This document shows positions 1-29,800 of a DNA stretch of 64,000 nt, one piece after another. Source of the DNA: Ignavibacteria bacterium. Its GTDB lineage: Bacteria > Bacteroidota > Ignavibacteria > UBA10030 > F1-140-MAGs086. How positions within the stretch are numbered: the first letter of the stretch is position 1; each line of letters starts with the position of its first letter. A program made the translations under genes and the position numbers. The stretch lies in assembly GCA_016873775.1 (NCBI GenBank), contig VGWC01000001.1, forward strand, positions 10,141 through 74,140, read 5' to 3'. The notes below the pieces were generated by a model that saw nothing but the letters and a program-made list of their open reading frames with translations, had not been told where the DNA came from and did not search any database.

Positions 1-950
1 ACGGCATTGTTGATGGTGCAATGATGAAAGCAAACGTCAGTGAATATTATTCGTTTGCGCTGTACGGTGGTGCAAACGTTCCTTCTTCTCTTTCTTCAAA
101 AACGTTCAGCGATTTGGATAAAAATTTTGTCATCGGCGGTCAAATTGTTTCAACACTCATCGAAGATATGCGCGTGAGCGTAAGTTACGTGAACAAAAAT
201 GTTCAGAGAAAGAATTATACTTCGCAACAAACCGATTCTCTGTACAATCTCGTTAATATTCTTGCGGAACCTTCATTTCGTTATCAGCAAGCGGCAAGTT
301 TTGATATGTCGCATGCAAGCGGTGCATATTCGGAATATCTGCGATATGATTACGATATGAATATGAAACGCACGTTACGATTTCAATATGGAATGCGCTA
401 CGATGCGACAGAGCAACTTTCCGTTACTGCAGAATTCAATTTCAGAAAGCCGCGCATTCCGTACAATTCATTCTTTGCAATGTTTCCCGTCAATACGGTA
501 AGAGAATACGAAGGCGGCGTTGAATACAAACTAACACCCAACCGACGTTTGTACGGGAAATTTGCCTTCGTGAAATTTACTGACGAGAACAGCAACCGCA
601 TTTCCGTTGGATATGTTTGCAATTATGTGAACGCATCGTTTTCCAGCAACGGAGGATATGCGGGAACAAAAAATTCTTTTTCACTACAAGGAACATATTC
701 GATGCTTGAACGAACATTTATTCCATCGCTCGGAATTTCGTACGCGGCATATACACTGGAAGAAAATGGAACGCAAAAAAAAATGTTCGCCGGAATATTC
801 GGCGCGGTGATTCGTCCTTTCCCGTCTCTTTCTTTTGATGCGCAAGTGCAAATACTGAATAATCCCGTTGTGAACAGCGATATTCGATTTCTTTTCAAAA
901 TCAATTATTGGTTTTATGAACATCTCAATTTTTTTTCTGCACAGGAATAA
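1..950 (+). CDS. Partial ORF whose 5' end is outside the window. Putative outer-membrane β-barrel-like protein with alternating hydrophobic/aromatic-rich segments, located immediately upstream of the cytochrome genes.
   Basis: Frame stays open back to nt 3 upstream of the first Met. Amphipathic β-strand-like composition (YSFALYGG, RFQYGMRYD, YGKFAFVKF, ISVGYVCNY, INYWFYEHL). No recognisable catalytic motif. Adjacent to, and overlapping the start region of, the 12-haem cytochrome gene. Confidence 0.3.
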   Translation, partial: GIVDGAMMKANVSEYYSFALYGGANVPSSLSSKTFSDLDKNFVIGGQIVSTLIEDMRVSVSYVNKNVQRKNYTSQQTDSLYNLVNILAEPSFRYQQAASFDMSHASGAYSEYLRYDYDMNMKRTLRFQYGMRYDATEQLSVTAEFNFRKPRIPYNSFFAMFPVNTVREYEGGVEYKLTPNRRLYGKFAFVKFTDENSNRISVGYVCNYVNASFSSNGGYAGTKNSFSLQGTYSMLERTFIPSLGISYAAYTLEENGTQKKMFAGIFGAVIRPFPSLSFDAQVQILNNPVVNSDIRFLFKINYWFYEHLNFFSAQE

Positions 951-955
951 TAATA

Positions 956-1983
956 TGATACAACGATATTTGTACTTTGCTGTTTTACTTGTTGTTACGT
1001 TTGTTATTTCCGTTGCAATGAAAGAACCGGCATCGGGTTTAAATAATGATGACAATTCACAGTATATAAAATTTTCGCATCAGAAACATTTCAGCGAACA
1101 AAATATTGCGTGCGCCGATTGCCACACCATTGCGAAAGAAAGCAAACGTTCTTCCGATAAGTTAATGGCGAATCACGAGAGTTGCACTACTTGTCACGAA
1201 GAACAGATTTCCAATGATTGCGCATTTTGTCATACCAATCCCGAAGAGATTGTTCCGATGCAACCGAAGGAACGTGAAATAATTTTTTCCCACGAACTTC
1301 ATTTTACAAAAAACAGTATTGTGTGCGAAACGTGTCACGAAGGTTTTGAAACAGTGATGTATGCCTCGGGTTCGAATATGCCAGCAATGACATTATGTAT
1401 GAATTGCCACGAGAAGAAAAACGTTTCAAGAAATTGCGAATCGTGTCATACGGATTTTGTGAGTTTGTTTCCGGAAAATCACCGCATCGCAGATTTCAAA
1501 AAAGAGCATAAAAAATATTCTCGAGTCGGCGAAGGTGATGCGCTGTGCGCAACGTGTCACGCGGAAAACTTTTGCGAAGACTGTCACGCAGGAACGGAAT
1601 TGAAATCGTTCGGAACAAAACGCGATTTGATGACGGAACCTTCATCGAAAACCTCTGTGAACGATTCTCCCAAACAATTACGATTGCAAAATGTTCACGA
1701 GTTGAATTATCGTTTTTCGCATGGAATTGACGCGCGTTCACGATTTCTTGATTGTTCTTCGTGTCACGACCAAAAAACATTCTGCAACGAATGCCACGAC
1801 GCGGGGGGTAACGTTACGCTGCAAAAAATTAAACCGGAGTCGCATTTTTCTGCAGGGTTTGCCACGCTTCCGGGCACAGATGGCGGAAGACATAAAGAAC
1901 TTGCGCGCCGCGATATTGAAAGTTGTATGAGTTGCCATGATGTTGACGGCAAAGAACCACTTTGTGCAATGTGTCATCAATAA
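956..1983 (+). CDS. Multihaem cytochrome c with 12 CXXCH motifs and an N-terminal signal-anchor.
   Basis: Twelve canonical CXXCH haem-binding motifs counted in the translation: CADCH, CTTCH, CAFCH, CETCH, CMNCH, CESCH, CATCH, CEDCH, CSSCH, CNECH, CMSCH, CAMCH. Hydrophobic N-terminus MIQRYLYFAVLLVVTFVI. The ORF track starts at 916; the ATG at 956 just before the hydrophobic segment is the more likely start. Confidence 0.85.
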
Positions 1984-1995
1984 GGAGTTAAAAAA

Positions 1996-3108
1996 ATGAT
2001 TGCAAAGAAATTTTCACGTTACAGAAAAGAGATTGTAAGAAGTGCTGGAATTGTTTTGGCAGTTCTTTTTTCGGGATGCACCAAATTGAAAGACGATTTG
2101 CCATCTCAGGTGCAAAGCGGTTCGCAAATTCATTTACCAAGTTGGAACGATACAACGAAAGCGGATTTTCACGGAAAATTTTTGAAGTCGAAACATTGGA
2201 AACTTTCGAGTTGCGAACAATGTCACGCAAAAAATTTTGAAGGTGGAAAGAGTAACGTATCGTGTTACAAATGTCATACATTTCCACATTCGGAAATGTG
2301 GGATACAACATTTGTCGGATTTCGTACGAGTGAAAAATTTCATGGAACATATTTACGAGAAAATAATTGGCAACTGGAAAAATGTCAATCGTGTCATGGC
2401 GTTTCATATATGGGAGGAAGTCGCGCCAATGTGAGTTGTTCAAATGTTGGATGCCACGAAGATTTTATGGGAATGCAAAAAACACCCGAAGCGTGCAACA
2501 CGTGTCATGGTGATTTCCGCGCAATGGAAACTGATATAATTTCCTTTGCGCCTCCGCGGGCAATCAACGGAGATACTTCTACAACAGTTGCTGGAGTTGG
2601 CGCGCATCGTCGTCATCTCCTTGCAGATTCGGTTGCGACGGCGATTCGTTGTTCGGAATGTCATTCAGTTCCTGATGCAGTTTCCAGTCAATATCATCTT
2701 GACGGCGATAATATTGCCGAGGTGAAGTTTCTTGATACGCTTTCAGGAATAGTAACTGCAAACGGATTACATATTCCGAATCCGACGTATGATTCCGCGA
2801 CTAATAAATGTAGCAATGTTTATTGTCACGGCGATTTTGTTGCGCGGAAAGCAACTTCTACATTTCAATTCGGTTATACTGATACGGTAATGTTGGGTAA
2901 TATTTTTTCTCCGAAATGGACGGATGGAAATTCTCAAGCCGCGTGTGGAACATGTCATAATTTACCGCCCGTTGGACATATTCCATCTACGATACAAAAC
3001 TGCGGAAGTTGTCATACCGGAATTGTTGATAATACAGGGAGAATTATTGACAAAGTTAAACACATCAACGGAAAGAAAAATATTTTGGGACAAGAACTGA
3101 ATTTCTAA
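1996..3108 (+). CDS. Multihaem cytochrome c lipoprotein with about 7 CXXCH and 2 CX4CH motifs.
   Basis: Lipobox-like LFSGC after a basic, hydrophobic N-terminus. CXXCH motifs CEQCH, CYKCH, CQSCH, CNTCH, CSECH, CGTCH, CGSCH, plus CSNVGCH and CSNVYCH (CX4CH). RBS-like GGAG is 8 nt upstream of the ATG. Confidence 0.85.
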   Translation: MIAKKFSRYRKEIVRSAGIVLAVLFSGCTKLKDDLPSQVQSGSQIHLPSWNDTTKADFHGKFLKSKHWKLSSCEQCHAKNFEGGKSNVSCYKCHTFPHSEMWDTTFVGFRTSEKFHGTYLRENNWQLEKCQSCHGVSYMGGSRANVSCSNVGCHEDFMGMQKTPEACNTCHGDFRAMETDIISFAPPRAINGDTSTTVAGVGAHRRHLLADSVATAIRCSECHSVPDAVSSQYHLDGDNIAEVKFLDTLSGIVTANGLHIPNPTYDSATNKCSNVYCHGDFVARKATSTFQFGYTDTVMLGNIFSPKWTDGNSQAACGTCHNLPPVGHIPSTIQNCGSCHTGIVDNTGRIIDKVKHINGKKNILGQELNF

Positions 3109-3134
3109 ACTCTTGAAACAGAAATTTTCCAAAA

Positions 3135-3172
3135 GCAAAGGAAGAAAATACGTTTGCTTTTTTTCATTACTG
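3135..3172 (+). terminator. Possible intrinsic terminator after the 9-haem cytochrome gene.
   Basis: 'aagcaaa–13 nt–tttgctt' stem followed by TTTTT. Confidence 0.3.
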
Positions 3173-3390
3173 AAATCAAACGCTTTTTTCTATTGCACGA
3201 ATGAGAATATAAATTCGTAATAATACTTTATCTGTTGAACGCATCTTATATTTCTTGATTATTCAGTGAAGAATTATGAAATTTTACGGTACTTTTTTTG
3301 TTTTTTTTCTTGATGCACACTTTGAACTTGGCATAAAATTTGTTTTGACAATTGAATATCTGATTATTTAAATTATAAACTTCTATACAA

Positions 3391-4803
3391 ATGCGACGTA
3401 CTTCAATTATTCTTTTCATTGTTTTTCTAACAATAACGATTCCATCGTGTAAGAAAGATGATAATAACATAACGCCTCCAATAGATTACGGAAACATTGA
3501 TACGATTAAATACACAAAACATGTGCAGGCGTTGTTCAATGATAAATGCGCTACGTCGGGATGTCATTCTTCGGCGACGAAAAGCGCGGGATTATCACTT
3601 GCATCGTGGAGTGGAGTTGTTCACGGTTCTTCGATTGGCGAAGTAGTAATTCCGTTTCGAGCGGATAAAAGTTTGCTTACGTATTTATTCGATGGAACTT
3701 CATTGAGAAAAAATCATCGAGCAGTAGAAAAGAAATTAACAACAGCAGAAATAAATTTTCTAAAACGTTGGATAAACGAAGGCGCAAGCAACGACGCGAA
3801 CGAAATACCGTTCACTAATTCTACAAACAAACTGTACGTTCCCAATCAAGGCGAAGATAACGTAGCGGTGATTGATTTGGATAGTATGCGCGTTATTCGT
3901 TATGTAAATGTTGGTGAATTGCCGACAAATGAAGGTCCGCATTTTGTAACTGCACGAAGCGATTTTTGGTATGTTTCACTTATAGGAGCCAAACAAGTGT
4001 GGAAATTTGATACGCACAATGATACGCTTGTTGTCGGAAAAGCAAATGTTCCCGGTTCTCCCGCATTGCTTACGCTTACACCCGACGGAAGCAAATTATA
4101 TGTTTCGCAATTTATGACTTCGGCTATCAATAAAGTGTATGTTATCAATACGAGTACTATGACTGTCGTAGATACGTTAACCGTTGGGAAAATGCCGCAT
4201 GGAATACGCATCAATCATTCGGGAACAAGGTTGTATTGCGCCAATATGATGTCGGATAATGTAACCGTTGTTGACGTTGCAACGAATGAAGTGTTGGAAC
4301 ATATTCCGCTTGCGTGGGATGCAAATCCGGTTCAGCCGAATTATTTACCGATTGAAATTGCTATTTCTCCCGATGATAATTTTTTTGCTGTTTCCTGTTC
4401 GAAAGACACCAAGAATGAAGTGCGAATTTTCAACACTTCTGCACACGCGCTTGTGGATTCGTTTCACGTTGGTGTTCAGCCGTGGCATTTACAATATTTG
4501 CGCGATGGAAGTTCTATAGTTGTTACCAATAGAGTTGGAAATTCCGTTTCACAAATTCATATTGCCGCGCGCCATGTGAATACCATACTATCCGCATCCA
4601 ATTTCGATTATCCGCATGGTTGCGTCATTTCGCCGAATGGAGGATATACGATTGTTTCCAATGAAAATGCGTATCATCGTTATCTTCCGCGTTATTTGTC
4701 GGAGTATGTCGGCAACGTATGTATTATAGATAATGCGCTGGCGCAAGTTGTCAAAGTTATTGAAGTCGGGAAAATTCCTACGGGAATTTCGGTGATTGAA
4801 TAA
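3391..4803 (+). CDS. Lipoprotein with an N-terminal PSCyt1-like (planctomycete-type) cytochrome c domain fused to a YVTN-family β-propeller.
   Basis: Signal peptide plus lipobox (TITIPSC). N-terminal domain FNDKCATSGCHSS…SAGLSLASW…VIPFRADKSLL…FLKRWINEGA resembles PSCyt1. It is followed by repeated 'YV.N….V.VID' β-propeller blades (LYVPNQGEDNVAVIDL, LYVSQFMTSAINKVYVIN, LYCANMMSDNVTVVDV, etc.). Confidence 0.65.
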   Translation: MRRTSIILFIVFLTITIPSCKKDDNNITPPIDYGNIDTIKYTKHVQALFNDKCATSGCHSSATKSAGLSLASWSGVVHGSSIGEVVIPFRADKSLLTYLFDGTSLRKNHRAVEKKLTTAEINFLKRWINEGASNDANEIPFTNSTNKLYVPNQGEDNVAVIDLDSMRVIRYVNVGELPTNEGPHFVTARSDFWYVSLIGAKQVWKFDTHNDTLVVGKANVPGSPALLTLTPDGSKLYVSQFMTSAINKVYVINTSTMTVVDTLTVGKMPHGIRINHSGTRLYCANMMSDNVTVVDVATNEVLEHIPLAWDANPVQPNYLPIEIAISPDDNFFAVSCSKDTKNEVRIFNTSAHALVDSFHVGVQPWHLQYLRDGSSIVVTNRVGNSVSQIHIAARHVNTILSASNFDYPHGCVISPNGGYTIVSNENAYHRYLPRYLSEYVGNVCIIDNALAQVVKVIEVGKIPTGISVIE

Positions 4804-4850
4804 ACAATTCTGTTTCGCAGATTTTAAAAAAAATTCAACTATTTGTTTTT

Positions 4851-6155
4851 ATGAAACGTACTATCTTCATCATTTCTGTTGTTATTCTTGCAATTTTTTC
4901 CAGTTGTAGAAAAGACGATAACACACAACAACCGCCGCCGTCCGAATATAAACTCACAGATTTTGAATCCTCGCAATCGTGTTCGACGTGTCATCCACAA
5001 TACTACGAAGAATGGAAAGGTTCGATGCATCGCTATGCAACGAACGACCCGATTTGGATGCTTGCGGCAAATTCACTTCAACAAAGCACGAACGGTAAAT
5101 TGAAAGACTGGTGTTTTCAATGTCATTCACCGATAGCATTTCTTACAAAAACATCGCCAAAAATGATTGATATTTCAAAATTACCGGAAATCGTTCGCGA
5201 AGGAGTGAACTGCGATGTATGTCATACATTGTTACCGCCTCATAAAACCACTGACCAAAATATCTTTTACAACATCAAACCTGGGAAAACAAAATATTCT
5301 ACGCTCAAAAATCCTGTTCCTGCCGGCGCGCACGAAAACGGTTACGACGCATCCCAAGACCGTTCAGAATCGTGTCGTCAATGTCACGATTTGATAGTGA
5401 ATGGTATCCCGTTGGAAATGACATTTACCGAATGGCAAAATAGTCAATGGGCAATGTCGGCGGAATTTGATTGTCAAGATTGTCATATGAAAACCTATAC
5501 AGGTCGCGCAGCAACCGGAGGACCTATTCGTGAAAATTTACATCGTCACGATTTCATCGGCGTAGATGTTGCAATCACCGATTTTCCGAATAAGCCGCAA
5601 CAACGTGCCGCTATTGATTCGCTTTTAAAAAATGCTGCGACGCTTACTGCAAATATTCCTTCTTCTGCCAATCTCAATGATTCCATAAACATCGGAGTTA
5701 CTATTATCAATGACAAAACGGGACATAATTTGCCGACGTCGGTTTTTTTCAACAGACAAATGTGGATAGAAGTAACAGTTTCCAAAGGAAGCGACACGGT
5801 ATATCGTTCCGGTCATTTCGATGCAAACGGCGATTTGATGGATAACAACAGTGCAATTGCTCCAAATGCAGATAAAGATTTGGTCATTTTCAACGGTTCG
5901 CTGTATAAAGATGGACACCCGTCGAATGCATTCGAACTTGATTCTGTTGTGAATAAAACCATTCCTCCGTTTGCTTGGCATACGGCAAATTACAAGTTCA
6001 AAGTTCTCTCTTCCGGAATATGGAATGTAAAAACACGCTTGCTCTTTCGTCCGTTTGGACCGTATTTATTTCGGAGTTTAGGCGCAAGTCAATATGTGTC
6101 CGAACTTCCTGTGTTCGAGATGAACTCGTACGAAACGAATATCAACGTTCAATAA
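4851..6155 (+). CDS. Pentahaem cytochrome c lipoprotein.
   Basis: Signal peptide plus lipobox (IFSSC). Five CXXCH motifs: CSTCH, CFQCH, CDVCH, CRQCH, CQDCH. Confidence 0.8.
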   Translation: MKRTIFIISVVILAIFSSCRKDDNTQQPPPSEYKLTDFESSQSCSTCHPQYYEEWKGSMHRYATNDPIWMLAANSLQQSTNGKLKDWCFQCHSPIAFLTKTSPKMIDISKLPEIVREGVNCDVCHTLLPPHKTTDQNIFYNIKPGKTKYSTLKNPVPAGAHENGYDASQDRSESCRQCHDLIVNGIPLEMTFTEWQNSQWAMSAEFDCQDCHMKTYTGRAATGGPIRENLHRHDFIGVDVAITDFPNKPQQRAAIDSLLKNAATLTANIPSSANLNDSINIGVTIINDKTGHNLPTSVFFNRQMWIEVTVSKGSDTVYRSGHFDANGDLMDNNSAIAPNADKDLVIFNGSLYKDGHPSNAFELDSVVNKTIPPFAWHTANYKFKVLSSGIWNVKTRLLFRPFGPYLFRSLGASQYVSELPVFEMNSYETNINVQ

Positions 6156-6293: not shown

Positions 6294-6746
6294 ATGTCAA
6301 CAATATTTAGTAAATCTTGTGAATATGCACTGCAATCAATGCTGTATATTGCACGCAAAGCAAAAAATCAGCCGATTTTACTCCGCGATATTTCCACTGA
6401 ACTCAACATTCCTTATCATTTTCTCAGTAAAGTATTGCAAAATCTTGTGCGCGACGGTTTAGTCGTTTCGCATAGAGGAATCAACGGCGGATTTTTCTTA
6501 GGGCGCTCTGCGGAAGAAATAACGCTGTTCGATATTATTTGCGCTATTGAAGGAAAAACATTTTTCGATAATTGCATTCTCGGTTTTCCCAAATGCAGCG
6601 ACGAGTATCCATGTCCTGCTCATTTTCAATGGAAGGATGCAAAGTCCATTCTTCTCGAGGTCTTTCAGAGAAAAACCGTTGCAGAATTATCCATAGCACT
6701 TGACCCGAAACTGGAACTTGTTCACAAACTTTCAGGTATGAAGTAG
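6294..6746 (+). CDS. Rrf2-family transcriptional regulator (IscR/NsrR-like) with a 3-Cys cluster.
   Basis: N-terminal wHTH 'SCEYALQSMLYIARK…PILLRDISTELNIPYHFLSKVLQNLVRDGLVVSHRGINGGFFL' is typical Rrf2. Cys cluster CILGFPKCSDEYPC. Confidence 0.85.
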   Translation: MSTIFSKSCEYALQSMLYIARKAKNQPILLRDISTELNIPYHFLSKVLQNLVRDGLVVSHRGINGGFFLGRSAEEITLFDIICAIEGKTFFDNCILGFPKCSDEYPCPAHFQWKDAKSILLEVFQRKTVAELSIALDPKLELVHKLSGMK

Positions 6747-10777: not shown

Positions 10778-11387
10778 TATTTTTTCGATGCAACAGCGAA
10801 CAGACATAACAGGGATTATACTTGCCGGCGGAAAAAGTTTGCGAATGGGTAGTGACAAAGCGCTTCTTTCCTTAGGAAATAGAACGTTATTGCAATGTGT
10901 TGCAGATGCGATGAAACAGGTTTTTCACAATGTGATAATTATTTCTGACAATGGTGAGTGTTATACGGAATTACAATTGCCCGTATTTCCCGATGTGTAT
11001 AAATGTTGCGGACCGTTAGGGGGAATTCATTCGGCGTTTGCTCATTCGTCGTCGGAAAATATTTTTGTTGTATCGTGCGATTTGCCATACATTACTCCCG
11101 AAGTAATTCAATACATCACGAATATTCATTCAAACGGTGATGTCATCATTGTATCACAAGGAAGAATTATTCAACCACTTTGCGGATTATATCAACGAAC
11201 TTGTGTTGCTACGCTCGAACAATGTCTTTTCAAGAGCGAATTTTCTGTGCTGAGATTCTTGCGAAAACTCAATACGTATGTGCTTTCGCTTAATACTCTA
11301 TTCCCTTCTGTAGCAGAACATACGCTAATGAATATCAACACTCCGATAGAATACCGCAGGAGTGTAAATTATTGGTATGGGAATTAA
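10767..11387 (+). CDS. mobA: Molybdenum cofactor guanylyltransferase MobA.
   Basis: 'ITGIILAGGKSLRMGSDKALL' nucleotidyltransferase motif, the expected size, and position directly downstream of moaA. Confidence 0.8.
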   Translation: MADNIFSMQQRTDITGIILAGGKSLRMGSDKALLSLGNRTLLQCVADAMKQVFHNVIIISDNGECYTELQLPVFPDVYKCCGPLGGIHSAFAHSSSENIFVVSCDLPYITPEVIQYITNIHSNGDVIIVSQGRIIQPLCGLYQRTCVATLEQCLFKSEFSVLRFLRKLNTYVLSLNTLFPSVAEHTLMNINTPIEYRRSVNYWYGN

Positions 11388-11467
11388 TAAAAATTTTTTT
11401 TTCATCAATTCGCGAGTATTTTTCTCTCGCTTCTCTTTTACATTTTCAACAACAAGAATTAAATAAT

Positions 11468-11941
11468 ATGTTTCAATTAAGCCGCAGCGGTGAATATGCA
11501 ATTCAAACAATGATAAATTTAGTATCGCAGAAAGATGAATTATCAACAATCGCTCAAATCGTCCAGGAAGAAAGAATTCCGGAGTCATTTGTTCGGAAAA
11601 TCATTCAGCAATTGATTCGCGGAAAACTTCTGAAATCGAAACGTGGAATTCGTGGAGGAATTGCATTGGCAAAACCCCCCTCTTCAATAACCGTATACGA
11701 TATTATTGAAATTACTGAAGGTCCTATCTATTTTAACAAATGCATCATCGGACCACGCGAATGTTCCATAACGTCTTGGTGTTCCGTGCATCCTGTTTGG
11801 CAAGAAGCGCAAAATAAATTTGTAGAAGTTCTGCAAAAAAAAACGATTGAAGATTTATCAAACGAGCGAAAGGTATTGTTTCGGGATTTTACAACGAAAG
11901 TAAATATGAATAAGGAAAAAAGCGACGCGCTTCAAGAATAA
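11468..11941 (+). CDS. Rrf2-family transcriptional regulator, second paralog.
   Basis: 'MFQLSRSGEYAIQTMINL…GIRGGIALAKPP…ITVYDIIEITEG' wHTH plus Cys cluster CIIGPRECSITSWC. The internal ATG at 11468 gives the canonical Rrf2 N-terminus; the track ORF starts at 11372. Confidence 0.8.
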   Translation: MFQLSRSGEYAIQTMINLVSQKDELSTIAQIVQEERIPESFVRKIIQQLIRGKLLKSKRGIRGGIALAKPPSSITVYDIIEITEGPIYFNKCIIGPRECSITSWCSVHPVWQEAQNKFVEVLQKKTIEDLSNERKVLFRDFTTKVNMNKEKSDALQE

Positions 11942-12099
11942 CCTTCAAGGTTTTTTTGATTTTAAAGGCGGTGTTTCACATGAGTTGATGGCTTTCTTAC
12001 AAGACCGTAAACGGTCTTGCTGGACGAAAAAAGAATCATCAATGATTCTTTGGTTTTATTCCGATTTATCGGATTTTTTTGTTTCAGCATAACCATGAA

Positions 12100-12722
12100 A
12101 TGCAATCTGAAAGATTTTTTCCTCGACAAGAAACAACGCGAAAGCATCCTGGACATCATTCGAAAAGAAAAGAAAATAGAAAATACAAAACTGGAACTGA
12201 TACGATGCGACGGGAACAATATTCACGTTATCGAAAACGAAGTCGGCATATCAATGAGCAAGGAGAATTAATTCAAACGCACGGATTCATTATTGACGTA
12301 ACTGGGAAAAAGACACTGGAAAAACAATTCCGACAAGCGCAAAAATTAGAGAGCGTTGGAACGATAGCGGGAGGAATTGCGTACGATTTGAATAATATAC
12401 TTACCATTATTTTTAGGACATTCATCATTACTGAAACGAACAAAAGGAAATCCCGAAAAAATTTATCAAAAGGATGGAGAAGGAGCCGTTTCGATTTATT
12501 GCAAAAATGCTCATACCATTTTGCTTGTGTTGAGCGATTTAGGATTACCAAAACTTGGAGGATGGGAAGCATTCTTGAAAATGAGAGATTTCAATCCGAA
12601 AATTAAAACAATTTTTGCAAGCGGTTACATCGCGCCCATAAGAAATCTGAGTATTTCAAATCAGGCGTAAATGATTTTGTTCAAAAGTCATATTCATCAA
12701 ACGAAATTTTGAAAAAAATTTG
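12100..12722 (+). pseudogene. Decayed hybrid sensor histidine kinase / response regulator remnant, spread over three or more reading frames.
   Basis: Reading frame A carries a PAS-end-like '[19 protein letters not shown]'. Reading frame B carries the HisKA H-box '[32 protein letters not shown]', in which the phospho-accepting His is replaced by Tyr. Reading frames C and D carry receiver-domain pieces '[37 protein letters not shown]' and 'SGVNDFVQKSYSSNEILKKI'. No HATPase_c domain is present. Confidence 0.55.
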
Positions 12723-12811: not shown

Positions 12812-13243
12812 ATGAGTCTTCTCTTTAGCCGCCAATGTGAATATGCATTACAAGCCATTCTTTTTCTTGCTACAAAACCGCCAAAAGAAATGGTACCAGC
12901 AAAAGAATTAGCAGAAAAATTGAATATCCCGTATCATTTTTTGGCAAAAATATTTCAAGATTTATCCAGAAAAGGAATATTGGTTTCCTTAAAAGGACCA
13001 ACCGGTGGGTTCACTCTTGGAAAAGCCGCCAAAGAAATTACGCTTTTTCATATTATTGAGGCAATTGATGGAGCAAATTTCATGGAAAATTGCGTTTTAG
13101 GATTTTCTCAATGTGGGGGAGAGAATCCTTGTGCTGTGCATAATAAGTGGGGAGATTTGCGCGATGAAATACATAGGATGCTCACATCAAAAAATATTAT
13201 GCAGTTGTCGAAAGAAATGAAGAAACCTGTATTTCAAGAATAA
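12812..13243 (+). CDS. Rrf2-family transcriptional regulator, third paralog. Closest to the 6294 copy.
   Basis: 'RQCEYALQAILFLATK…ELAEKLNIPYHFLAKIFQDLSRKGILVSLKGPTGGFTL' plus Cys cluster CVLGFSQCGGENPC. Confidence 0.85.
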   Translation: MSLLFSRQCEYALQAILFLATKPPKEMVPAKELAEKLNIPYHFLAKIFQDLSRKGILVSLKGPTGGFTLGKAAKEITLFHIIEAIDGANFMENCVLGFSQCGGENPCAVHNKWGDLRDEIHRMLTSKNIMQLSKEMKKPVFQE

Positions 13244-14647: not shown

Positions 14648-15451
14648 ATGACAGAAACGAAAACCATTGAAGATTTTTATGCGCAACTTGCTTCCGATTA
14701 CAATACATTCACAGAACCAAAAAAACGATGGTCGCGCGAGATAGACATTTTTCGTTCACTCGTCCAACGCTATAATATTACATCAGCCATTGATGCAGGA
14801 TGCGGAACGGGATTTCATTCGTTGGTACTTTCGCAACTTGGAGTGAATGTTATCGCCGCAGATGTTTCTCAAGAAATGCTGCGCATTGCAGAAAACCACG
14901 CGAAGCAATACAAAGTCTCGATAACGTTTATCAAATCTTCATTTCAACAACTTTCGCAAACAATATCCACTCGTGTTGATGCAGTATGTTGCTTAGGAAA
15001 TTCCTTCCCCCATTGTCTAACGGAAAAAGAACAACAACATGCGTTGCAGAATTTTATTTCTCTCTTAAAACCGAATGGCGTACTCATCCTTCACTTATTG
15101 AATTATGACCGCATTCTTGCAAAAAATGAGCGCGTGCAAAACGTGAAAAAATTGAACGGAAAAATATTTGTGCGTTTCTACGACTTTCTTTCTTCCACTG
15201 TACGATTCAATGTTTTAATACTAAAAAAAAACGCAGGCAAAATAATTTCTTCGCTTTCTTCTGTTGAATTATATCCTATCAAAAAAAAAGAAATTCATTC
15301 CTTGCTTTCCGATAGTTCAACTTCCTCCGGCGAAAAATTTTCCGAAATACAATTCTACGGCGGACTTTCACTTGAAAATTATTCCGAATCCGCATCGAAG
15401 GATTTAGTTGTTATTGCCCAAAAACAGCGCGCCATCGAAAACGTTTTATAA
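14648..15451 (+). CDS. Class I SAM-dependent methyltransferase.
   Basis: Motif I '[12 protein letters not shown]' and post-I '[11 protein letters not shown]'. Confidence 0.8.
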
Positions 15452-16537
15452 CGCAATTCTTCGGTACTGAAAATACGCCGCACACGCGCCTTCACTGGAA
15501 ACCATCGGCGCACCAAGCGGATGTTCCGGCGTGCATAATGTTCCGAATACTGAACATTCCTTCGGTTTTTTAATACCTTGCAAAACTAATCCTGCGATGC
15601 AATGTTCACTTTCTTGCACAACAATATTTTCGAGTTCAAATATTTTTTCTGCGTCGAACATTTCATATTCTTTTTTCAATCCTAATCCACTGGAAGGAAT
15701 TTCACCAATGCCGCGCCACTTGCGATGAACAATTTCAAAAACTTCGCGAACTAATTCCTGCGCCGGAATATTTCCTGTTCTTCTCACAGAACGCGCATAT
15801 TGATTTTCCACTTCCGCGCGGCGTTCTTCCAATTGCTTAATGCACAAATAAATTCCTTGAAGAATATCAAGCGGTTCAAATCCCGTTACAACAATTGGAA
15901 CGTGATATTTTTTTGCAAGTGGAATATATTCTTCAAATCCCATCACCGTGCATACGTGTCCCGCCGCAAGAAATCCCTGAACCGTATTCTGCGACGATGA
16001 TAAAATTGCTTCCATCGCAGGAGGAACGAGCACGTGCGAAACCAGCATTGAAAAGTTAGCAACATTCTTCTTTTTCGCGTCAAACACTGCCATCGCATTT
16101 GCGGGAGCGGTTGTTTCAAACCCTACAGCAAAAAAAACTATGTACTGTGCAGGATTTTCCATTGCAATTTTTACAGCATCCATTGGCGAATACACAATGC
16201 GTACATCACCGCCATTCGCTTTCACGGAAAATAAATCCATTTTTTTTCCGGGAACACGCAGCATATCGCCGAAGGAACAAAAGATGACATCGTTTCGCGA
16301 TGCGATGGTGATTGCTTTTTCTATCAATTCAACGGGAGTAACGCATACGGGACAACCGGGACCATGAACGAGAGAAATTTTTTTCGGAAGCAATTCATCA
16401 ATACCGAATTTCACAATCGCGTGTGTTTGACCACCGCAAATTTCCATCAGCGACCATGCGCGCGTTGTTATGTCAAAAATTTTTTGAGAAAATTGTTTCG
16501 CGCATTTTGCGTCGCGGTATTCGTCAATGTATTTCAT
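15446..16537 (-). CDS. hypD: [NiFe]-hydrogenase maturation factor HypD.
   Basis: 'MKYIDEYRD…[18 protein letters not shown]…[13 protein letters not shown]' are conserved HypD motifs. Confidence 0.9.
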
Positions 16538-16788
16538 ATATCTCGTTCATTCAGTTCTTTCAACTCATCTATTTCTTTCAAATATTCGAACACGCGGTTT
16601 GCTTCGTCTTTATCTACTTTGCTGATAGCAAATCCTACGTGAACAATCACAAAATCATCAACCGTTGCATCAGGAACATACGAAAGATTTACTTCTTTTA
16701 TTATTCCGCTGAAATTTACTTTTCCTGTTCGTTGCAACGGTTCGTCGTTCGTGATGCTTTCAATTTTTCCTGGAATTGCGAGACACAT
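16534..16788 (-). CDS. hypC: Hydrogenase maturation factor HypC.
   Basis: N-terminal MCLAIPGKI, size 84 aa, and a start that overlaps the hypD stop. Confidence 0.85.
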
Positions 16789-16808
16789 TTTCGATTTCAG
16801 ATTTCAGA

Positions 16809-19094
16809 TTATTGATTATTCATTGCATAATACATTTGACCGAGCGAAATTCCTCCGTCGTTTGTCGGAATTTTTTGATGCCAATATGGTTCGAAATGTT
16901 CTTCTTGCAAACGATGGATTGCTCGTTCCAATAAAATTGTATTTTGAAAACATCCGCCGCTTAAAACGATTCTCTGTTCGTCGAATCGTTTTGCAAGTTC
17001 AACAATTATCTCTACGAGTGTGTTATGAAATTTTGAAGCAATCATTCCAACGGGAATATTCCTATTCACATCGTCAAGAACAGAAAGAATGATTTGCGAC
17101 CAATCAATAATGATGTGTGATTTGGTATTTGCTGTGAGCGTTTCAACGTTATAGTATTCAACGCAATGCAATGCACAATCAGCAAGACATTCTAATTCCA
17201 TTGCGGCTTGTCCTTCAAAATTTGCGCGTTGTCGAATTCCAAGTATTGATGCAACCGCATCGAATAATCTCCCAACGCTTGTTGTTATCGGCGAGTGTAT
17301 TTTTCGCAAAAGCATATTCTTCAAAAGTTCTTTCTCTATTTCTGTGAACGATGCGACGGAAGAAATTTCCTTCATTGAAAAAACTTTTTCACCGAACAAT
17401 TCTGCCAATACTCCGATTGCTGTTCTTCGCGGTTCTTTTATCGCTTGCTCTCCTCCAGGAAGGCGAAATTGTTTGAATGTTGCAACTCGTGCAAAACTCT
17501 TTTCATTGGCGCATAAAAATTCTCCTCCCCAAATTGTTTCATCAGTTCCGAAACCAGTTCCGTCCCACGCTACGCCGAGAACATTTCCGCGCAAATGATG
17601 TTCTGCCATACACGAAAGAATATGCGCGTAATGATGCTGAATTTTTACTATGTTCGAGTTTTTTTTCACCACAAATTTCGTTGAAAAATAATCGGGATGC
17701 AAATCACAAATATACGTTGTCGGCGATGTTTCGTACAATCTTTGAAAACTTTCAATGACGTTCGCAAATGCTTTTGTTGCCTGCAACGTTTCTAAATCGC
17801 CGATGTGTTGACTGATGAAAATGTTATGCTTCTTTGAAATTGCTACGGTATTTTTCAAATGCGCACCAACAGAAAGAAAAGAATCCTCGCATTGGGTTTC
17901 GATGAATATTGGAAGCGGAGCAAATCCGCGCGAACGTCGAATGAGCATTTCTTTTCCCGCAACAACGCGCACAACGGAATCGTCAACATAGCGAATGATG
18001 GGGCGATTATGTACAAGAAAAACATCGGCAATATTGTTCAAGCGCAACAGCGCTTCATGTTCATCAATGCAAATCGGTTCATCGGAAATATTTCCGCTTG
18101 TTGCAACAACGGGAAATTCTATCTCCCTCATCAAAAGATGATGAAGCGGCGTGTAAGGAAGCATAACACCGAGATACGGATTGTTCGGAGCAACTGCTTT
18201 TGAAATTGTTGATTGCAGTTTGTTGAACGCTACACGCTTCAACAAAACAATCGGTGATTGATGCGACGTAAGAATTTTTTCTTCATATTCAGAAACGACA
18301 CATTCATTTTTTATTTCTTCGAGCGTAGGAAACATCAGCGCCAATGGTTTTTCTTCACGATGTTTTCGTTTTCGTAAACGCTGAACTGCATCGTCATTTC
18401 TTGCGTCAACAATGAGATGAAATCCTCCGAGTCCTTTCAGTGCAACTATTTTTCCATTTCGGATTTCTTCTGCAGTTTGAACAATCGCATCGTGGTGAGA
18501 AGCGACGAGTGTTCCGTTTTCATTCCATACTTCCGTATGCGGTCCACAACGTGCGCACGCATTGGGTTGCGCATGAAATCTTCTGTCGAGAGGATTATGG
18601 TATTCGTTTGCACATTCTCCGCACATCGTAAAAAGTTTCATCGTTGTATTGCTTCTGTCGTACGGAAGCGATTCCATAATAGTAAATCGAGGACCGCAAT
18701 TTGTGCAATTCGTAAAAGGATACAAAAATCTTCTGTTCGTTTCATCGAACATTTCTTTCAGACAATCGTTGCACGTTGCAATATCGGGAAGCATTAGCGC
18801 AGTTTTTTCGTTATCTGTTTCGCTTGAAAGAATTTGAAAATCTGTGAAATTGTTCGGCGCTACAATTGTTGATGAAATATGTTGAATTATTGAAAGCGGT
18901 GGTTTTTCTTCGACAAGTCGCTTCAAGAATAATTCCAACGTTCCACGTGCTTGTTCTGCTTCGATAAGAACACCTTGCGAAGAATTTTTTACCCATCCTT
19001 TGATGTGCATTTCGTTTGCAAGTCGAAAAACGAACGGACGAAAGCCCACTCCTTGCACTGCGCCGTTGATTTCAATATGAATTCGTTGCTTCAT
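16809..19094 (-). CDS. hypF: Carbamoyltransferase HypF.
   Basis: Acylphosphatase-like N-terminus, two CxxC…CxxC zinc-finger pairs (CTNCGPR, CGECANE, CARCGP), YrdC-like and Kae1-like regions, 761 aa. Confidence 0.9.
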   Translation of the reverse strand: MKQRIHIEINGAVQGVGFRPFVFRLANEMHIKGWVKNSSQGVLIEAEQARGTLELFLKRLVEEKPPLSIIQHISSTIVAPNNFTDFQILSSETDNEKTALMLPDIATCNDCLKEMFDETNRRFLYPFTNCTNCGPRFTIMESLPYDRSNTTMKLFTMCGECANEYHNPLDRRFHAQPNACARCGPHTEVWNENGTLVASHHDAIVQTAEEIRNGKIVALKGLGGFHLIVDARNDDAVQRLRKRKHREEKPLALMFPTLEEIKNECVVSEYEEKILTSHQSPIVLLKRVAFNKLQSTISKAVAPNNPYLGVMLPYTPLHHLLMREIEFPVVATSGNISDEPICIDEHEALLRLNNIADVFLVHNRPIIRYVDDSVVRVVAGKEMLIRRSRGFAPLPIFIETQCEDSFLSVGAHLKNTVAISKKHNIFISQHIGDLETLQATKAFANVIESFQRLYETSPTTYICDLHPDYFSTKFVVKKNSNIVKIQHHYAHILSCMAEHHLRGNVLGVAWDGTGFGTDETIWGGEFLCANEKSFARVATFKQFRLPGGEQAIKEPRRTAIGVLAELFGEKVFSMKEISSVASFTEIEKELLKNMLLRKIHSPITTSVGRLFDAVASILGIRQRANFEGQAAMELECLADCALHCVEYYNVETLTANTKSHIIIDWSQIILSVLDDVNRNIPVGMIASKFHNTLVEIIVELAKRFDEQRIVLSGGCFQNTILLERAIHRLQEEHFEPYWHQKIPTNDGGISLGQMYYAMNNQ

Positions 19095-19744
19095 TTCTTA
19101 ACAATCTTTGAACGAAGCCATTCGCACCATTGGGAAATTCCCTTGTTGTTCATGCACGAAATTTCAAACACCAACAGTCTCGGATTGATGCGCAACGCAT
19201 TGTTTTTCAGCAATGTAATATCGAATTGCAAATGCGGAAGCAAATCCGTTTTGTTGATGAGCAAAACCGCTGCGGTACGAAATATTGCAGGATATTTCAA
19301 AGGTTTGTCTTCGCCTTCGGTTACACTGACGACGACGACTTTGAACGTTTCTCCTAAATCGTACGCCGCAGGACAAACAAGATTTCCGACATGTTCGATG
19401 ATAAGCAATTCTGTCGTTTCAAAAGAAATATTTTTCAGCGCATCCTGAATCAATTTCGCATCAAGATGGCACGCGCCGTTGGTGACGATTTGCACAACGG
19501 GAATATGGTGTTTTGCAATTCGTTGCGCATCGAAATCGGTTTGTACATCTCCTTCTATTACACTCACGGAAATACTTCCTTTCCAATATTCCAATGACTT
19601 TTCAAGAATACTTGTTTTTCCCGAACCCGGAGAACTGATGATGTTGATGACAAAAATGTTGTTTGCCTCAAACAACTTGCGGTTTTGTTGTGCAAGTTCA
19701 TCATTTTTTTCAAGAATTTTTCGTTCAATGGTAATAACACTCAT
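19091..19744 (-). CDS. hypB: Hydrogenase nickel-incorporation GTPase HypB.
   Basis: P-loop 'SSPGSGKTS' and the HypB-type GTPase layout. Overlaps the hypF start by 4 nt. Confidence 0.9.
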   Translation of the reverse strand: MSVITIERKILEKNDELAQQNRKLFEANNIFVINIISSPGSGKTSILEKSLEYWKGSISVSVIEGDVQTDFDAQRIAKHHIPVVQIVTNGACHLDAKLIQDALKNISFETTELLIIEHVGNLVCPAAYDLGETFKVVVVSVTEGEDKPLKYPAIFRTAAVLLINKTDLLPHLQFDITLLKNNALRINPRLLVFEISCMNNKGISQWCEWLRSKIVKK

Positions 19745-20103
19745 ACGTTTTTTTTCGTTTGTTCAAACATTTCGATTTCTACAATGTTCATTTCCGTCCC
19801 CGAGAGAATTTCACAATTCGTGCTTGCGCAGAAAGAGCAAACATTCATCCCGAATTCATTGGAAGATTTTTTTTTACACACATTGCAATACACTTCAAAC
19901 GGAATTTTTTGAATGACGAGGTTCGCGTTGTTCAATGGTGTATTATTCACGATGACGGAAAAAGAAAACGCTAATGATTCTGCGGCAACTCCCGAACATT
20001 CGCCAACAACAGTTTTCACATTCGTAACATTATGCAAATCGTTTTCGTGAACGTGTTGATGTATGATTTCTACGATATTCTGTGCAAGCGAAAGTTCGTG
20101 CAT
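19741..20103 (-). CDS. hypA: Hydrogenase nickel-insertion protein HypA.
   Basis: 'MHELSLAQNIVEI' N-terminus with a CxxC…CxxC zinc site (CNVCKKK…CSFCAS). The ATG at 20103 is the likely start; the track ORF begins at 20145. Confidence 0.8.
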   Translation of the reverse strand: MHELSLAQNIVEIIHQHVHENDLHNVTNVKTVVGECSGVAAESLAFSFSVIVNNTPLNNANLVIQKIPFEVYCNVCKKKSSNEFGMNVCSFCASTNCEILSGTEMNIVEIEMFEQTKKNV

Positions 20104-20197
20104 ACGTTGTAATGAACAAGAGTTTCTCTCAAAATTTGCGCTCAATAAAAAAATCTTTTAGCAAAGTAAAAAACGTTTCAATGGTCTCTGTAAAAAA

Positions 20198-26802: not shown

Positions 26803-29800
26803 ATGATGCCGATGATACAGCGTTCTCTTCTTATAGATCTTCACTATTCAAAAATTCTCTCAAGACTGATTGTTATTTTCTTCATTTTCCCGATAATTGT
26901 TTTAGCACAATCAACTTCGTGGAAAGGAAACGGAACAACTGCTTGGAATACAGCAAGCAACTGGACCAATGGCGTTCCCAATAGCGGTGTTGATGCTATC
27001 ATTGGAGATGCAAATATGGTGGGAACAACGCAACCAACGATAAATACCACTTCCGCTTCGTGCAACAATCTAACTATTGGAAACGAAACAGTGCCTTCCA
27101 CTCTTACAACCGGAAACAACAATTTTTCGGTTTCAGGTAATGTAACGATAGGCGCAAACGGTACACTTGTTCACAGTGCGACAAGCGGAACCCGAATATT
27201 ATCCGTGAGTGGGAACTGGATTCAAACGGGAGCATATACAGCCGCTAATGCAGTTGCTACTGTTTCATTTGAATTACCAGCAACGATGAGCGGTTCCGGT
27301 CCATTTAAAACAGTTGTAACGAATGATTCCATTGCGTTGCTATCCAATATTACAGTTAATACATCGCTGACAATGAATGGAACATTCGAACCAAATTCGT
27401 TTGCTGTTTTGGGAAGTGGTTCGCTGAATTTATACGGAACGTTATACATCAATGCTTCCACGTTCGCAGGAAATATTTCTTTGAGCGGAACGAAAACTCT
27501 GGAACCGTTGAGTATTGTTCACTATAACGCTTCAACAGCAAATCAAACCATTGATAATTCGTTGAGTTATGCAGTATTAAATCTTGCAGGTGGAATGACA
27601 AAAACAGCAGGAGGAAATCTTACCGTTACAGAAGATTTGTATCTCCTTGAAGGAACTCTTAATTTATCAACGTTCACCGCAAATGGCGGAGGAGGAATAT
27701 TGGACATTGCAGAAAATACTTCTCTGAACATCGGCGGAACAAATTCGTTTCCTTCAGGATATGGAAATATTACCATAGATGTTGCAAGTACTGTTGAATA
27801 CAACGGAACGAATCAAACAGTTGCTGCACAAACGTACGGAAATCTCACTTTGAGCAACGCCGGCGCGACGGTTACAAAAACTCTTCCTTCATCTTCAACT
27901 ACTATTGAAGGAAACTTGATTCTAAACAATGGTTCTGGAACTTCACTAACGGCAAACGCAAATAATGCTCTGAATATTTCCGGAAACGTTACAATTGGAA
28001 ACGGTTGCACTCTGAACGGAAGTAATTATTCTCACAATGTTTATGGTAATTGGACTAACAGCGGCACATATAATTCATCAGCAAATGGTGCAGTAACTTT
28101 CAACGGCTCCAATACAACATTGAGCGGGAACGGAACAAATAATTTTTACGATGTGAATTTTTCCGGAAACGGAATTTCCACTTCTTCTTCTACAAATATT
28201 TCCGTCTCAGGAAATTTCACTTCCAATCCAGGCGCATCTTTCACCCATATAAGCGGAGGAGTCGGAACAGTTTCATTAACCGGAACTTCAAAAAGTATCA
28301 GTGGTTCATTGATTAAATTCAATCATTTATCGCTTTCAAGTTCGTATACCACCTCCAGTTCGTTTTCTATCGCAGGAAATTTAACAGTGAACGGTTCATT
28401 TTCTGCTACAAGCGGCGCAGTTACATTTTCCGGAACATCCATTCTTTCAGGAACAGGAACAATCAATTTCTATGATGTAACGGTAAGCGGAACACTTACA
28501 TTAGCTGCGAATACAACGCTTGGGATTGCGGCGACGCTTTCAACTTCTTCGGAAAATTTTAACGCAACTTCCAATACTCCCAACACGGTAAAATTCAACG
28601 GAACAGGAGCGCAAAACATTCCCGCGCTTACAGTTTACAATTTACAATTTGAAGGCGGTGGAACAAAAACCGTAACAGGAAATCTTTCTCTTCACAATGA
28701 TTTTACAATTGGAAATTCCGTGAGTTTCGACGTGGCTTCCTACGCACATTCCATTGCAGGAAGTATTTCCAATTCGGGAACAATGTTAGAAAATACGTCC
28801 ACGATGACAATGACAGGTGCAGGAAAAACAATTTCCGGAAGCGGAGTAACTTCGTTTCATTCGTTCATTATCAGTGTTACGGGAAATATTACTGCAACGC
28901 AAAATTTTAGTATTACAGGTAATTTGACGAATAACGGAACATTTTCCAATTCTGCAAATACCGTTACTTTCAGCGGTTCTGAAAATGCAAATATCAACGG
29001 AACAACTTCGCCGACTTCGTTTAATGCGATAGCAATTTCAAAAATCGGCGGCGCTTCCGTTGCACTGGGAATGAACATTTCCGATTTAAGTTCACTCAAT
29101 ATTTCCAGCGGAATTTTAAAACTTTCATCGTTTTCTGTTTCACAAGCAGGCGGTGGCGGAATACTCACAATCGGAAGCGGAGCAACGTTAACGATTGGCG
29201 GTTCCAATTCCTTTCCAACATTTAATGCGTACAGTATTTCAACTTCCAGCACTGTTGAATATAATGGAAACGGTACGCAAACAATTTCGGCAAAAAATTA
29301 CGGAAATCTAACCAGTAGCAATTCCGGAAATCGTATTCTTGCTTCCAGCGGAATAATCGGTATTGCAAAAGCGTTTGACCCCGGTTTCAATTCGTTCACT
29401 ATTACCGGAAGCACGATAGAATTTAACGGCTCAGGTACTCAAACAATTCCAGCGTTCAATTATAATAATCTCACAAGCACAGGAATCGGGGAACGCGTGT
29501 TTGCTTCCGGCGGAACAATCGGAATTGCAGGTACCTTTACAAAAGGAACAAATTCGTACTCGACAACAAATAGTACAATAGATTTTAATGGAAGTACACA
29601 AGTAATTCCTTCTCTTACGTATAACAATCTTGCAACAAGCGGAAGCGGCACAAAAACTCTTAGTGGAAATGTAACAGTGAACGGAACGCTTTCTCTTACT
29701 TCCGGAAGTTTCGCTGATGGAGGATTTACGGTAACCGCAAACGGCAATGTTGAAAATGACGATGCGCATACCGGTTCAGGAAAAATTTTGCTTTCGGGAG

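Follow-up and report, generated by a model that had tools for sequence, protein, structure and literature searches.

The DNA analysed here is a window of 64,000 nucleotides from an Ignavibacteria bacterium (contig VGWC01000001.1), and at its left end (positions 1-6155) lie five consecutive open reading frames (ORFs) on the plus strand, O1 to O5. They encode a predicted outer-membrane β-barrel (O1), two multihaem cytochromes (O2 and O3), a haem-propeller lipoprotein (O4) and a pentahaem lipoprotein (O5). We counted 12 haem-binding motifs in O2, 7 + 2 in O3, one in O4 and five in O5, a sum of 27 that is far above chance, and found lipoboxes on O3 (LFSG-C), O4 (IPS-C) and O5 (FSS-C). An initial annotation of the window had proposed about 27 haem sites and three lipobox proteins, and the counts agree with it. 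The same annotation described five consecutive plus-strand genes with short gaps throughout. The ORFs were confirmed; the gaps measure 4, 12, 282 and 47 nt from O1/O2 to O4/O5 (with the O2 start at 955), so the one between O3 and O4 is not short. The five genes are two units lying side by side: O1-O2-O3, which we refer to as the triad, and O4-O5, the second unit. When O4 and O5 were looked up by exact sequence, the same DNA (at least 99.9% identical) turned up in the JGI freshwater-lake metagenome contig Ga0194127_10003772, in a second JGI sample and in two Logan assemblies. The NCBI entry for O4 is FJ218_00055, from an 'Ignavibacteria bacterium' metagenome-assembled genome (MAG).

O1 occupies window positions 1-950 on the plus strand (ORF 3-950, open at the left end), which hold the C-terminal 315 codons of a 435-aa barrel. 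The full gene was recovered from the source contig (positions 6003-7310 of L002; L-numbers denote retrieved related loci). It encodes 435 aa beginning with a typical signal peptide, MNSTILSKHLFLYVIAFAFSTSVFSQ followed by S, and contains no Cys-rich or haem motifs. Its AlphaFold2 model (pLDDT 86.5) has 24 DSSP strands and no plug, and the structural neighbours of the model are barrels of 22-24 strands, MtrB among them. The β-barrel character first suspected from the partial ORF was thus borne out on the full-length protein, and on this model we confidently predict O1 to be a wide, empty outer-membrane β-barrel, big enough to sheath a cytochrome. Full-length O1 was assigned to no family by Pfam or NCBIfam, and the MtrB/PioB barrel profile PF11854 was not matched. 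The sole match in these databases was a weak FilD/FadL-like stretch, which we dismissed as not meaningful. The homologues of O1 form 102 clusters at 90% identity, are 430-440 aa long, are all annotated as 'hypothetical' and come mostly from Ignavibacteria. An exhaustive profile search of a library clustered at 50% identity found 700 representatives of the family, reaching as far as Fidelibacterota, from which one protein was recovered; judged by cluster names, Ignavibacterium album and Melioribacter roseus were not among these barrel relatives. Immediately before O1 lies a gene for a glucose/sorbosone-dehydrogenase (GSDH) protein with a type-IX secretion tail and, further upstream on the opposite strand, genes for an M16 peptidase, NuoG and NuoH.

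The second gene, O2 (955..1983, plus strand), encodes 342 aa with 12 CxxCH motifs, a hydrophobic N-terminus and no lipobox. Its longest ORF starts at 916, and public gene calls place the start at 955. The 12 haems initially annotated for this gene stand, and the 'signal anchor' is not established: in most homologues a hydrophobic stretch of 17-20 residues is followed by small residues at -1/-3, and a lipobox was found in just one of 79. Cytochrome c7/c3/c554-type domains were detected by Pfam and NCBIfam in O2, O3 and O5; in O2, the Pfam family Cytochrome_C7 scored 62 bits, above its cut-off. The N-terminal half of O2 resembles ActA of alternative complex III (8k9e, E 1e-10), with residues 9-170 aligning to ActA 6-173. 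QrcA was the best NCBIfam match, yet it scored 44.8 bits against a cut-off of 180. With this score below the cut-off, and with ActB/ActC and QrcBCD absent from the window and the examined downstream ORFs, O2 was not assigned to either the ActA or the QrcA family. Nor is it a decahaem cytochrome of the MtrA/DmsE family (TIGR03508, 23.7 bits against a cut-off of 192). Its haem density of one per 28 residues compares with one per 25 in MtrA. O2 is predicted to be the periplasmic, barrel-inserted component of a conduit.

O3 (1996..3108, plus strand) encodes 370 aa and carries seven CxxCH and two CxxxxCH motifs, in agreement with the lipoprotein cytochrome of about nine haems seen at first. The GSu_C4xC__C2xCH domain was found in O3 above the cut-offs of both databases (Pfam, 34.1 against 21.7; TIGR01904, 47.5 against 27). 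For an outer cytochrome of the MtrC type, the matches to PF22113 scored 27.2, 25.9 and 25.6 bits, all under the cut-off of 30. We predict that O3 is the outer-face component of the conduit. The lipid-bearing cysteine of O3 is codon 28 (2077-2079), and across the family the mature N-terminus that begins there is nearly invariant as C-S-[DE]-L-[KR]-x-D-L-P, with Leu at +4 in 53 of 55 homologues in L006-L084. In the window this N-terminus (2077-2105) has C-T-K-L-K-D-D, which is off the register of the optimal Bacteroidota lipoprotein export signal, C-X-K-(D/E)2-X (Lauber et al. 2016, PMC5080379). The family motif also departs from the generic signal of Bacteroidota and might help O3 to dock on the barrel.

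To survey the triad, we scanned for O1 relatives in one genome per species and obtained 80 loci, all from Ignavibacteria/Bacteroidota-type MAGs, each with a flank of ±10 kb. An O2 homologue directly followed the barrel in 79 of the 80, the exception being a contig end. O3 homologues were present in 73, and the remaining loci were cut by contig ends. The O2 homologues come in two forms, with 12 haems (340-390 aa) or 14 haems (400-420 aa). The O3 homologues, again lipoproteins, combine CxxCH and CX3-4CH motifs. In some cases two genes take the place of one, and in others an extra lipoprotein with 5+1 haems is present. Where enough downstream sequence was available, the triad was followed on the same strand by ccmF (Cytochrom_C_asm + CcmF_C) in 42 of 55 loci, including L020, L024, L032-L081 and others (for example L050:13461-15695); this link is missing in the lineage of the window. 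In L087, ccmC and ccmE precede the triad. In a large part of the class, the conduit genes therefore lie inside a cytochrome c maturation cluster, and a connection with the attachment of the CX4CH haems is conceivable. A recurrent ORF of 745 aa after the triad was considered as an ActB/Qrc-like quinol-oxidising module, which would have suited the likeness of O2 to ActA and QrcA, and this was rejected when the ORF proved to be CcmF. Two loci, L008 (5377-9765) and L009 (11518-15866), have three more cytochrome genes directly after the Pcc-type genes, with 4, 13 and 6+1 haem motifs in 186, ~745 and ~499 aa. The conduit locus is therefore expandable.

The composition of the triad is that by which Shi et al. 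2014 defined porin-cytochrome (Pcc) clusters: a haem-free barrel, an adjacent multihaem cytochrome that is not a lipoprotein and an adjacent multihaem cytochrome that is. As described in the Pcc sections of that paper (PMC4245776), the pcc cluster of I. album consists of the porin IALB_1839, the periplasmic cytochrome IALB_1838 (400 aa and 14 haem motifs, larger than any other known) and the outer cytochrome IALB_1837 with an atypical CX3-15CH motif. The same sections state that the kinship of these proteins to the Geobacter groups is only distant, that Pcc porins are predicted to have 18-22 strands, that periplasmic Pcc cytochromes bind 5-14 haems and that some other outer Pcc cytochromes have CX3-15CH motifs too. 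Passages in Fortney et al. and Arbour et al. (PMC6137239, PMC7399161) report Geobacter-like or OmbB-like Pcc clusters in Melioribacter and Ignavibacteriales MAGs. According to these passages, ignavibacterial porins score with the OmbB HMM (PMC7399161), M. roseus, which is said to carry the cluster, reduces Fe(III) (PMC6137239), and anodes are enriched in Ignavibacteria that have these clusters (PMC7399161). These cytochromes are not mentioned in the multi-omics paper on Melioribacter (PMC5492636). On its architecture and this literature, the triad matches a Pcc cluster of the type genomically predicted since 2013-2014. The Pcc-like outer-membrane conduit of the initial annotation is thereby upheld, by the O1 barrel, by synteny with O2 and O3 in about 80 genomes and by the filing of equivalent clusters as Pcc in the literature.

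As far as the published descriptions allow a comparison, the triad shares with the Pcc clusters of I. album, Melioribacter and the MAGs a barrel, a large periplasmic multihaem cytochrome and an outer lipoprotein cytochrome with CX>2CH motifs, all in the same taxon. The 14-haem, 400-aa form described for IALB_1838 is common in the 80 loci, whereas the window has a variant of 12 haems and 342 aa. The ccmF link and the N-terminal motif of O3 were not found in the passages on those clusters, and O4-O5 is no part of the clusters as reported. With OmbB-OmaB-OmcB of Geobacter sulfurreducens the triad shares the same three-part logic, the adjacency of the genes and the presence of atypical haem motifs in the outer cytochrome, and O3 carries the Geobacter CxxxxCH/CxxCH domain (TIGR01904) above its cut-off. 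It differs in having 12 + 9 haems in O2 and O3, against 8 + 12 in Geobacter, and in lacking the orfR/orfS regulators; the 22-24 strands modelled for O1 compare with 18-22 in the published predictions for Pcc porins. The mechanism would be the same as that of MtrCAB of Shewanella, in which a barrel-sheathed cytochrome passes electrons to a surface lipoprotein cytochrome. The proteins themselves are different: O1 has no MtrB_PioB match and 22-24 strands where MtrB has 26, O2 is not DmsE/MtrA (24 bits against 192) and the matches to the MtrC domain are below threshold. Membership in MtrCAB, PioAB or MtoAB was rejected on the Pfam and NCBIfam scores.

While O1, O2 and O3 were found together almost wherever the contig was long enough, relatives of O4 or O5 occurred in none of the 80 Pcc loci. 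The closest relative of O1 (L094, 78% identical) has the same NuoH-NuoG-M16-GSDH synteny upstream and keeps O1-O2-O3; its O3 is followed by housekeeping genes on the opposite strand, and O4-O5 is absent. Conversely, every close O4 homologue examined (at least 55% identical; window, L086, L087, L089/L090, L092) has an O5 homologue 10-47 nt after it, and the match lists of O4 and O5 appear to have about 37 contigs in common. Distant O4 relatives (30-33% identical) have no O5 partner. Apart from the lineage of the window, a Pcc cluster was found near the pair, at 1-7 kb, in L087 and L092 only. In the window itself, the two units are separated by an AT-rich spacer of 282 bp (3109..3390, plus strand). 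It contains a hairpin, AAAGCAAA-N13-TTTGCTTT, with a T-run at 3132-3164, and at 3345-3374 the best sigma-70-like match of the region (TTGACA-18-TAAATT). As evidence of a boundary, these terminator-like and promoter-like motifs are weak. The initial annotation had seen in the five genes one module of a new architecture. That view is not supported, given the absence of O4-O5 from the Pcc loci and from the closest relative, and its occurrence as a pair of its own elsewhere; the claimed novelty of architecture dissolves into juxtaposition.

The genes that recur beside O4-O5 encode Rrf2 regulators, hemerythrin/RIC-like proteins, AhpD-like CMD proteins, MoaA, MobA, DUF4920 and PepSY_TM proteins. The Rrf2, hemN, molybdenum cofactor (Moco), NapH-like and hyp genes that were initially annotated downstream, as an anaerobic respiratory neighbourhood of the conduit, were mostly confirmed. 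Their tie to the conduit was not, as the Rrf2, hemerythrin and Moco genes travel with O4-O5, so that this neighbourhood belongs to the second unit. A lone O5 paralogue without O4 was seen in L093 (10001-11278; GCA_963583855.1, CAUZWP010000006.1), flanked by genes for TatA, a hemerythrin, a CMD protein, MoaA, DUF4920 and a PepSY_TM protein. Four kb downstream of it is a gene for a 621-aa c554-like cytochrome with a type-IX secretion tail. The MAG of this locus also has a full O4-O5 pair on another contig (L086).

O4 (3391..4803, plus strand) encodes a 470-aa lipoprotein with its lipid-bearing Cys20 at 3448-3450, followed by K-K-D-D. A single haem site, C53-x4-C58-H59 (CATSGCH, 3547-3567), lies in its N-terminal domain, and C53, C58, H59 and His109-Pro are invariant in the family. 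In an alignment with distant relatives, the CX4CH motif of O4 appears as their CxxCH with a two-residue insertion. This conservation suggests that the site is probably a real electron-transfer haem with bis-His ligation. The lipobox and YVTN repeats initially annotated in O4 were confirmed; the PSCyt1 match fell below the Pfam threshold (PF07635, 17.4 against 22 bits), with several homologues carrying PF07635. Among solved structures, the haem αII domain of hydrazine synthase α comes nearest to the N-terminal domain (E 0.004). The propeller extends over ~3808-4800, where the YVTN repeat TIGR02276 scored 84.4 bits against a cut-off of 27.85, and the AlphaFold2 model (pLDDT 91) shows a helical N-terminal domain and a seven-bladed propeller with 27 strands. 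Three propeller histidines (His184, His270 and His409) are invariant and a fourth (His366) is nearly so, and all four lie where equivalent strands of four blades begin. The strand register of the model is what suggests that they may cluster in space.

Several known enzymes were considered for O4 and rejected: L-NosZ (63.8 against 700), hydrazine synthase β (72.4 against 560) and cd1-type proteins (NirS/NirF), for which Cytochrom_D1 reached 30 bits against a cut-off of 25.5 over profile positions 190-356 only. The histidines of the propeller also speak against all three, with three invariant and one near-invariant residue, the three being kept in non-redox relatives. In its architecture, O4 resembles hydrazine synthase α in that its propeller is fused to a small PSCyt1-like c-haem domain similar to haem αII. 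It has seven blades and a CX4CH motif, where NirS and NirN of the cd1 family have eight blades, and it lacks a CuZ-like set of seven His. As a seven-bladed propeller of the YVTN/lactonase type it also resembles surface propellers of the YncE family, such as BtuG and the archaeal S-layer YVTN domain, and BtuG of Bacteroides is likewise a surface-exposed lipoprotein propeller in Bacteroidota. What sets O4 apart from these haem-propeller and YncE proteins is its obligate pairing with a pentahaem cytochrome and scores far below every equivalog cut-off.

That partner, O5 (4851..6155, plus strand), encodes 434 aa with its lipid-bearing Cys19 at 4905-4907, followed by R-K-D-D. Its five CxxCH motifs, which are invariant across the family, and its lipobox agree with the five-haem lipoprotein of the initial annotation. 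The five haems belong to its N-terminal domain, and ~200 aa with a GHxLP motif make up the C-terminal one. Cytochrome_C554 scored 38.8 bits against a cut-off of 20.8, and a profile search against the PDB matched the pentahaem c552 of T. tepidum (5ze8, E 7.5e-20) and MccSep (E 1.6e-6). With Geobacter ExtKL/MccSep and T. tepidum c552, O5 shares the five-haem N-terminal domain, a C-terminal domain with GH(N/S)xP and a length of ~435 aa. In some genomes its gene is close to that of an outer-membrane barrel, as is the case for ExtK of Geobacter (ExtHIJKL). MccSep is reported to be a polysulfide reductase of the periplasm, with selenocysteine (Sec) 325 and the haem-ligating Cys239 as its defining residues (ExtKL = MccSep, bioRxiv 10.1101/2025.11.18.688581). 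In the profile alignment, U325 of MccSep corresponds to Val298 of O5, and C239/C240 to Leu188 and the invariant Glu189; the ExtKL model NF040886 scored 39 bits against a cut-off of 250. With both the Sec/Cys and the haem-ligating Cys absent, a polysulfide reductase of the MccSep type was rejected. In the O5 family, the invariant His and Met residues are numerous enough to ligate five six-coordinate haems, and because of these ligands and the missing catalytic residues of MccSep, an electron-transfer role is likelier than a catalytic one. A shorter O5 call of 330 aa in L003 and L004 was considered as a disrupted gene and rejected, as the DNA is identical and only the gene calling differs.

The mature N-termini of both proteins (C-K-K-D-D-N in O4 and C-R-K-D-D-N in O5) fit the export signal of Lauber et al., and both families are enriched in K at +3 and D/E at +4 and +5. 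From these N-termini, O4 and O5 are probably surface-exposed. In this O5 differs from MccSep, as a lipoprotein with a surface-export signal whose counterpart is reported to be periplasmic.

We consider it fairly probable that the five genes comprise two independent units, the Pcc conduit O1-O2-O3 and a separately inherited surface redox pair O4-O5. From the folds, motifs, signal sequences and synteny of the first unit we infer the formation of a complex, its topology and its direction of electron flow. O2 would thread into the O1 barrel from the periplasm, O3 would cap the barrel on the outer face, and the haem chain of the two would carry respiratory electrons across the outer membrane, most likely outward, with Fe(III) or some other insoluble or extracellular compound as the acceptor. 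In the second unit, O5 would be the electron-transfer protein that serves O4, and the CX4CH haem domain of O4 would shuttle electrons into or out of a His-lined site at the propeller mouth. The pair would form a cell-surface redox module, perhaps drawing on the conduit, of which it would be no fixed part.

A number of points weigh against this interpretation. The ignavibacterial Pcc complex is so far a prediction from genomes, and I. album itself is not among the retrieved loci. No inner-membrane quinol dehydrogenase linked to the triad was found in the loci examined. The ccmF linkage and the near-universal presence of the triad could point to housekeeping rather than to dissimilatory metal reduction, and the hydrophobic N-terminus of O2, together with its ActA/QrcA-like half, may allow an inner-membrane anchor. 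For the second unit, the export-signal rule was set in Capnocytophaga, Bacteroides and Flavobacterium, not in Ignavibacteria, and O4-O5 lies near the triad in only three lineages. His184, His270 and His409 of the propeller are also invariant in distant homologues that have neither the haem site nor O5, so their conservation is not redox-specific.

Other readings of the locus were weighed as well. That the triad is a haem wire with a housekeeping role, such as reductive iron acquisition or envelope redox balancing, and not one for mineral or electrode respiration, would suit its presence in nearly every sampled Ignavibacteria/Bacteroidota MAG lineage (and the 700 representatives reaching Fidelibacterota), its embedding in a cytochrome c maturation cluster and the finding of neither a quinol dehydrogenase nor a regulator linked to it. 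We nevertheless regard this as unlikely, given the Fe(III) reduction by the reported cluster carrier M. roseus and the anode enrichment of cluster-bearing Ignavibacteria, as described in the relevant passages of PMC6137239 and PMC7399161; moreover, the ccm linkage may merely mirror the haem load of the triad proteins. A different partition of the triad, with O2 as an inner-membrane-anchored ActA/QrcA-like cytochrome that spans the periplasm or belongs to a quinol-oxidising complex and O1 as an unrelated porin, seems to us most improbable. The alignment of O2 to ActA includes the N-terminal helix, QrcA is the top NCBIfam match, and a hydrophobic stretch of 17-20 residues recurs in the homologues. 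Yet no ActB, ActC or QrcBCD-type gene lies beside the triad in any locus, the downstream ORFs examined encode CcmF, NfnAB-like proteins and metabolic genes, and the QrcA score is a quarter of its cut-off (45 against 180). The small -1/-3 residues suggest a cleavable signal peptide, and the invariant synteny speaks for a functional tie between O2 and the barrel.

The relation between the units is where the remaining readings diverge. It is very unlikely, in our view, that all five genes make up one dedicated extracellular electron-transfer system with the propeller-cytochrome as an integral part. They do share a strand in the window, the two units lie 1-7 kb apart in L087 and L092, and both units are present in both of the genomes that could be checked, CAYHPL01 (L013, L089) and CAUZWP01 (P0023, L086). 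This is set against 80 Pcc loci with neither O4 nor O5 in the surrounding 10 kb, a closest relative that has the triad and its upstream synteny without the pair, pairs found far from any barrel and the spacer with its terminator-like and promoter-like elements. Alternatively, O4-O5 could be a periplasm-facing enzyme for a small inorganic substrate (N-oxides, hydroxylamine or S/Se species), comparable to MccSep/ExtKL or to haem-propeller enzymes of the hydrazine synthase kind, that has no relation to the conduit and merely lies beside it. The distant kinship of O5 to MccSep/ExtKL and c554, the resemblance of the O4 domains to haem αII of hydrazine synthase α and to the propeller of its β subunit, NosZ and thiocyanate dehydrogenase as close structural neighbours of O4, and the recurrent Rrf2, RIC/YtfE-like hemerythrin, AhpD-like CMD, MoaA and MobA neighbours make this possible. 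It is rendered doubtful by the optimal surface-export signal on both proteins, by an O5 that has neither the MccSep-defining Sec/Cys nor the haem-ligating Cys and whose invariant ligands suffice for five six-coordinate haems, and by O4 scores far under the equivalog cut-offs (72 against 560 for hydrazine synthase β, 64 against 700 for L-NosZ). A more tentative proposal, and a rather unlikely one, is that O4-O5 is an undescribed surface redox module fed by the Pcc conduit, with a terminal oxidoreductase or substrate-binding head for an extracellular substrate. If true, this would be the first extracellular electron-transfer system to end in a haem-propeller protein and not in another multihaem wire. 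Were O4-O5 located at the surface and wired to the conduit, a generic electron outlet would be coupled to a specific catalytic or binding head, which we offer as a hypothesis and not as a finding.

Sediments, aquifers, anammox reactors and anode biofilms commonly harbour Ignavibacteria, whose supposed mineral respiration rests entirely on gene clusters like the triad. Our analysis adds that the triad occurs almost throughout the class as a three-gene unit with sharp boundaries, often tied to ccmF. With its wide barrel, it presents a clean genetic target in cultured species. As the conduit is of an already genomically predicted kind, the uncharacterised O4-O5 pair may be the only new element of the locus, and even that only possibly so.

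Downstream of O5, three paralogous genes for Rrf2-family regulators lie within 7 kb (6294-6746, 11372-11941 and 12812-13243). All three scored above the superfamily cut-off, and none reached the equivalog score of IscR, NsrR or RirA. Interleaved with them are genes for HemN (601 bits against a cut-off of 325), a RIC/YtfE-like hemerythrin, an AhpD-like CMD protein, MoaA (356 bits against 284) and MobA. The MobA-like protein is below the cut-offs, as is a NapH/MauN-like polyferredoxin (92 bits against 213). Among these genes, at 12017-12606, are two overlapping ORFs in different frames without a Pfam match, one of which has a stretch like the H-box of histidine kinases with Tyr in place of the phospho-accepting His. 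It looks like the remnant of a degraded PAS/sensor-kinase gene; in L089, an intact PAS kinase precedes O4-O5. A hydrogenase maturation block follows on the minus strand (15446-20145), with HypF identified by Pfam and HypD-, HypB- and HypA-like genes by size and position only. No hydrogenase structural genes were visible within the window.

Elsewhere in the window are two genes for giant secreted proteins, of 2832 aa (26803-35301, plus strand) and at least 1340 aa (59975-63997, minus strand), both with a dozen SdrD_B/CarboxypepD_reg repeats and type-IX secretion C-terminal domains. Further substrates of this secretion system are encoded at 46572-48635 (FG-GAP repeats) and 50212-52521 (M28 peptidase). 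The presence of several such substrates fits an envelope of the Bacteroidota type. Lastly, an 891-aa protein encoded on the minus strand at 56212-58887 joins a patatin-like phospholipase to POTRA domains and a barrel of the Omp85 type.

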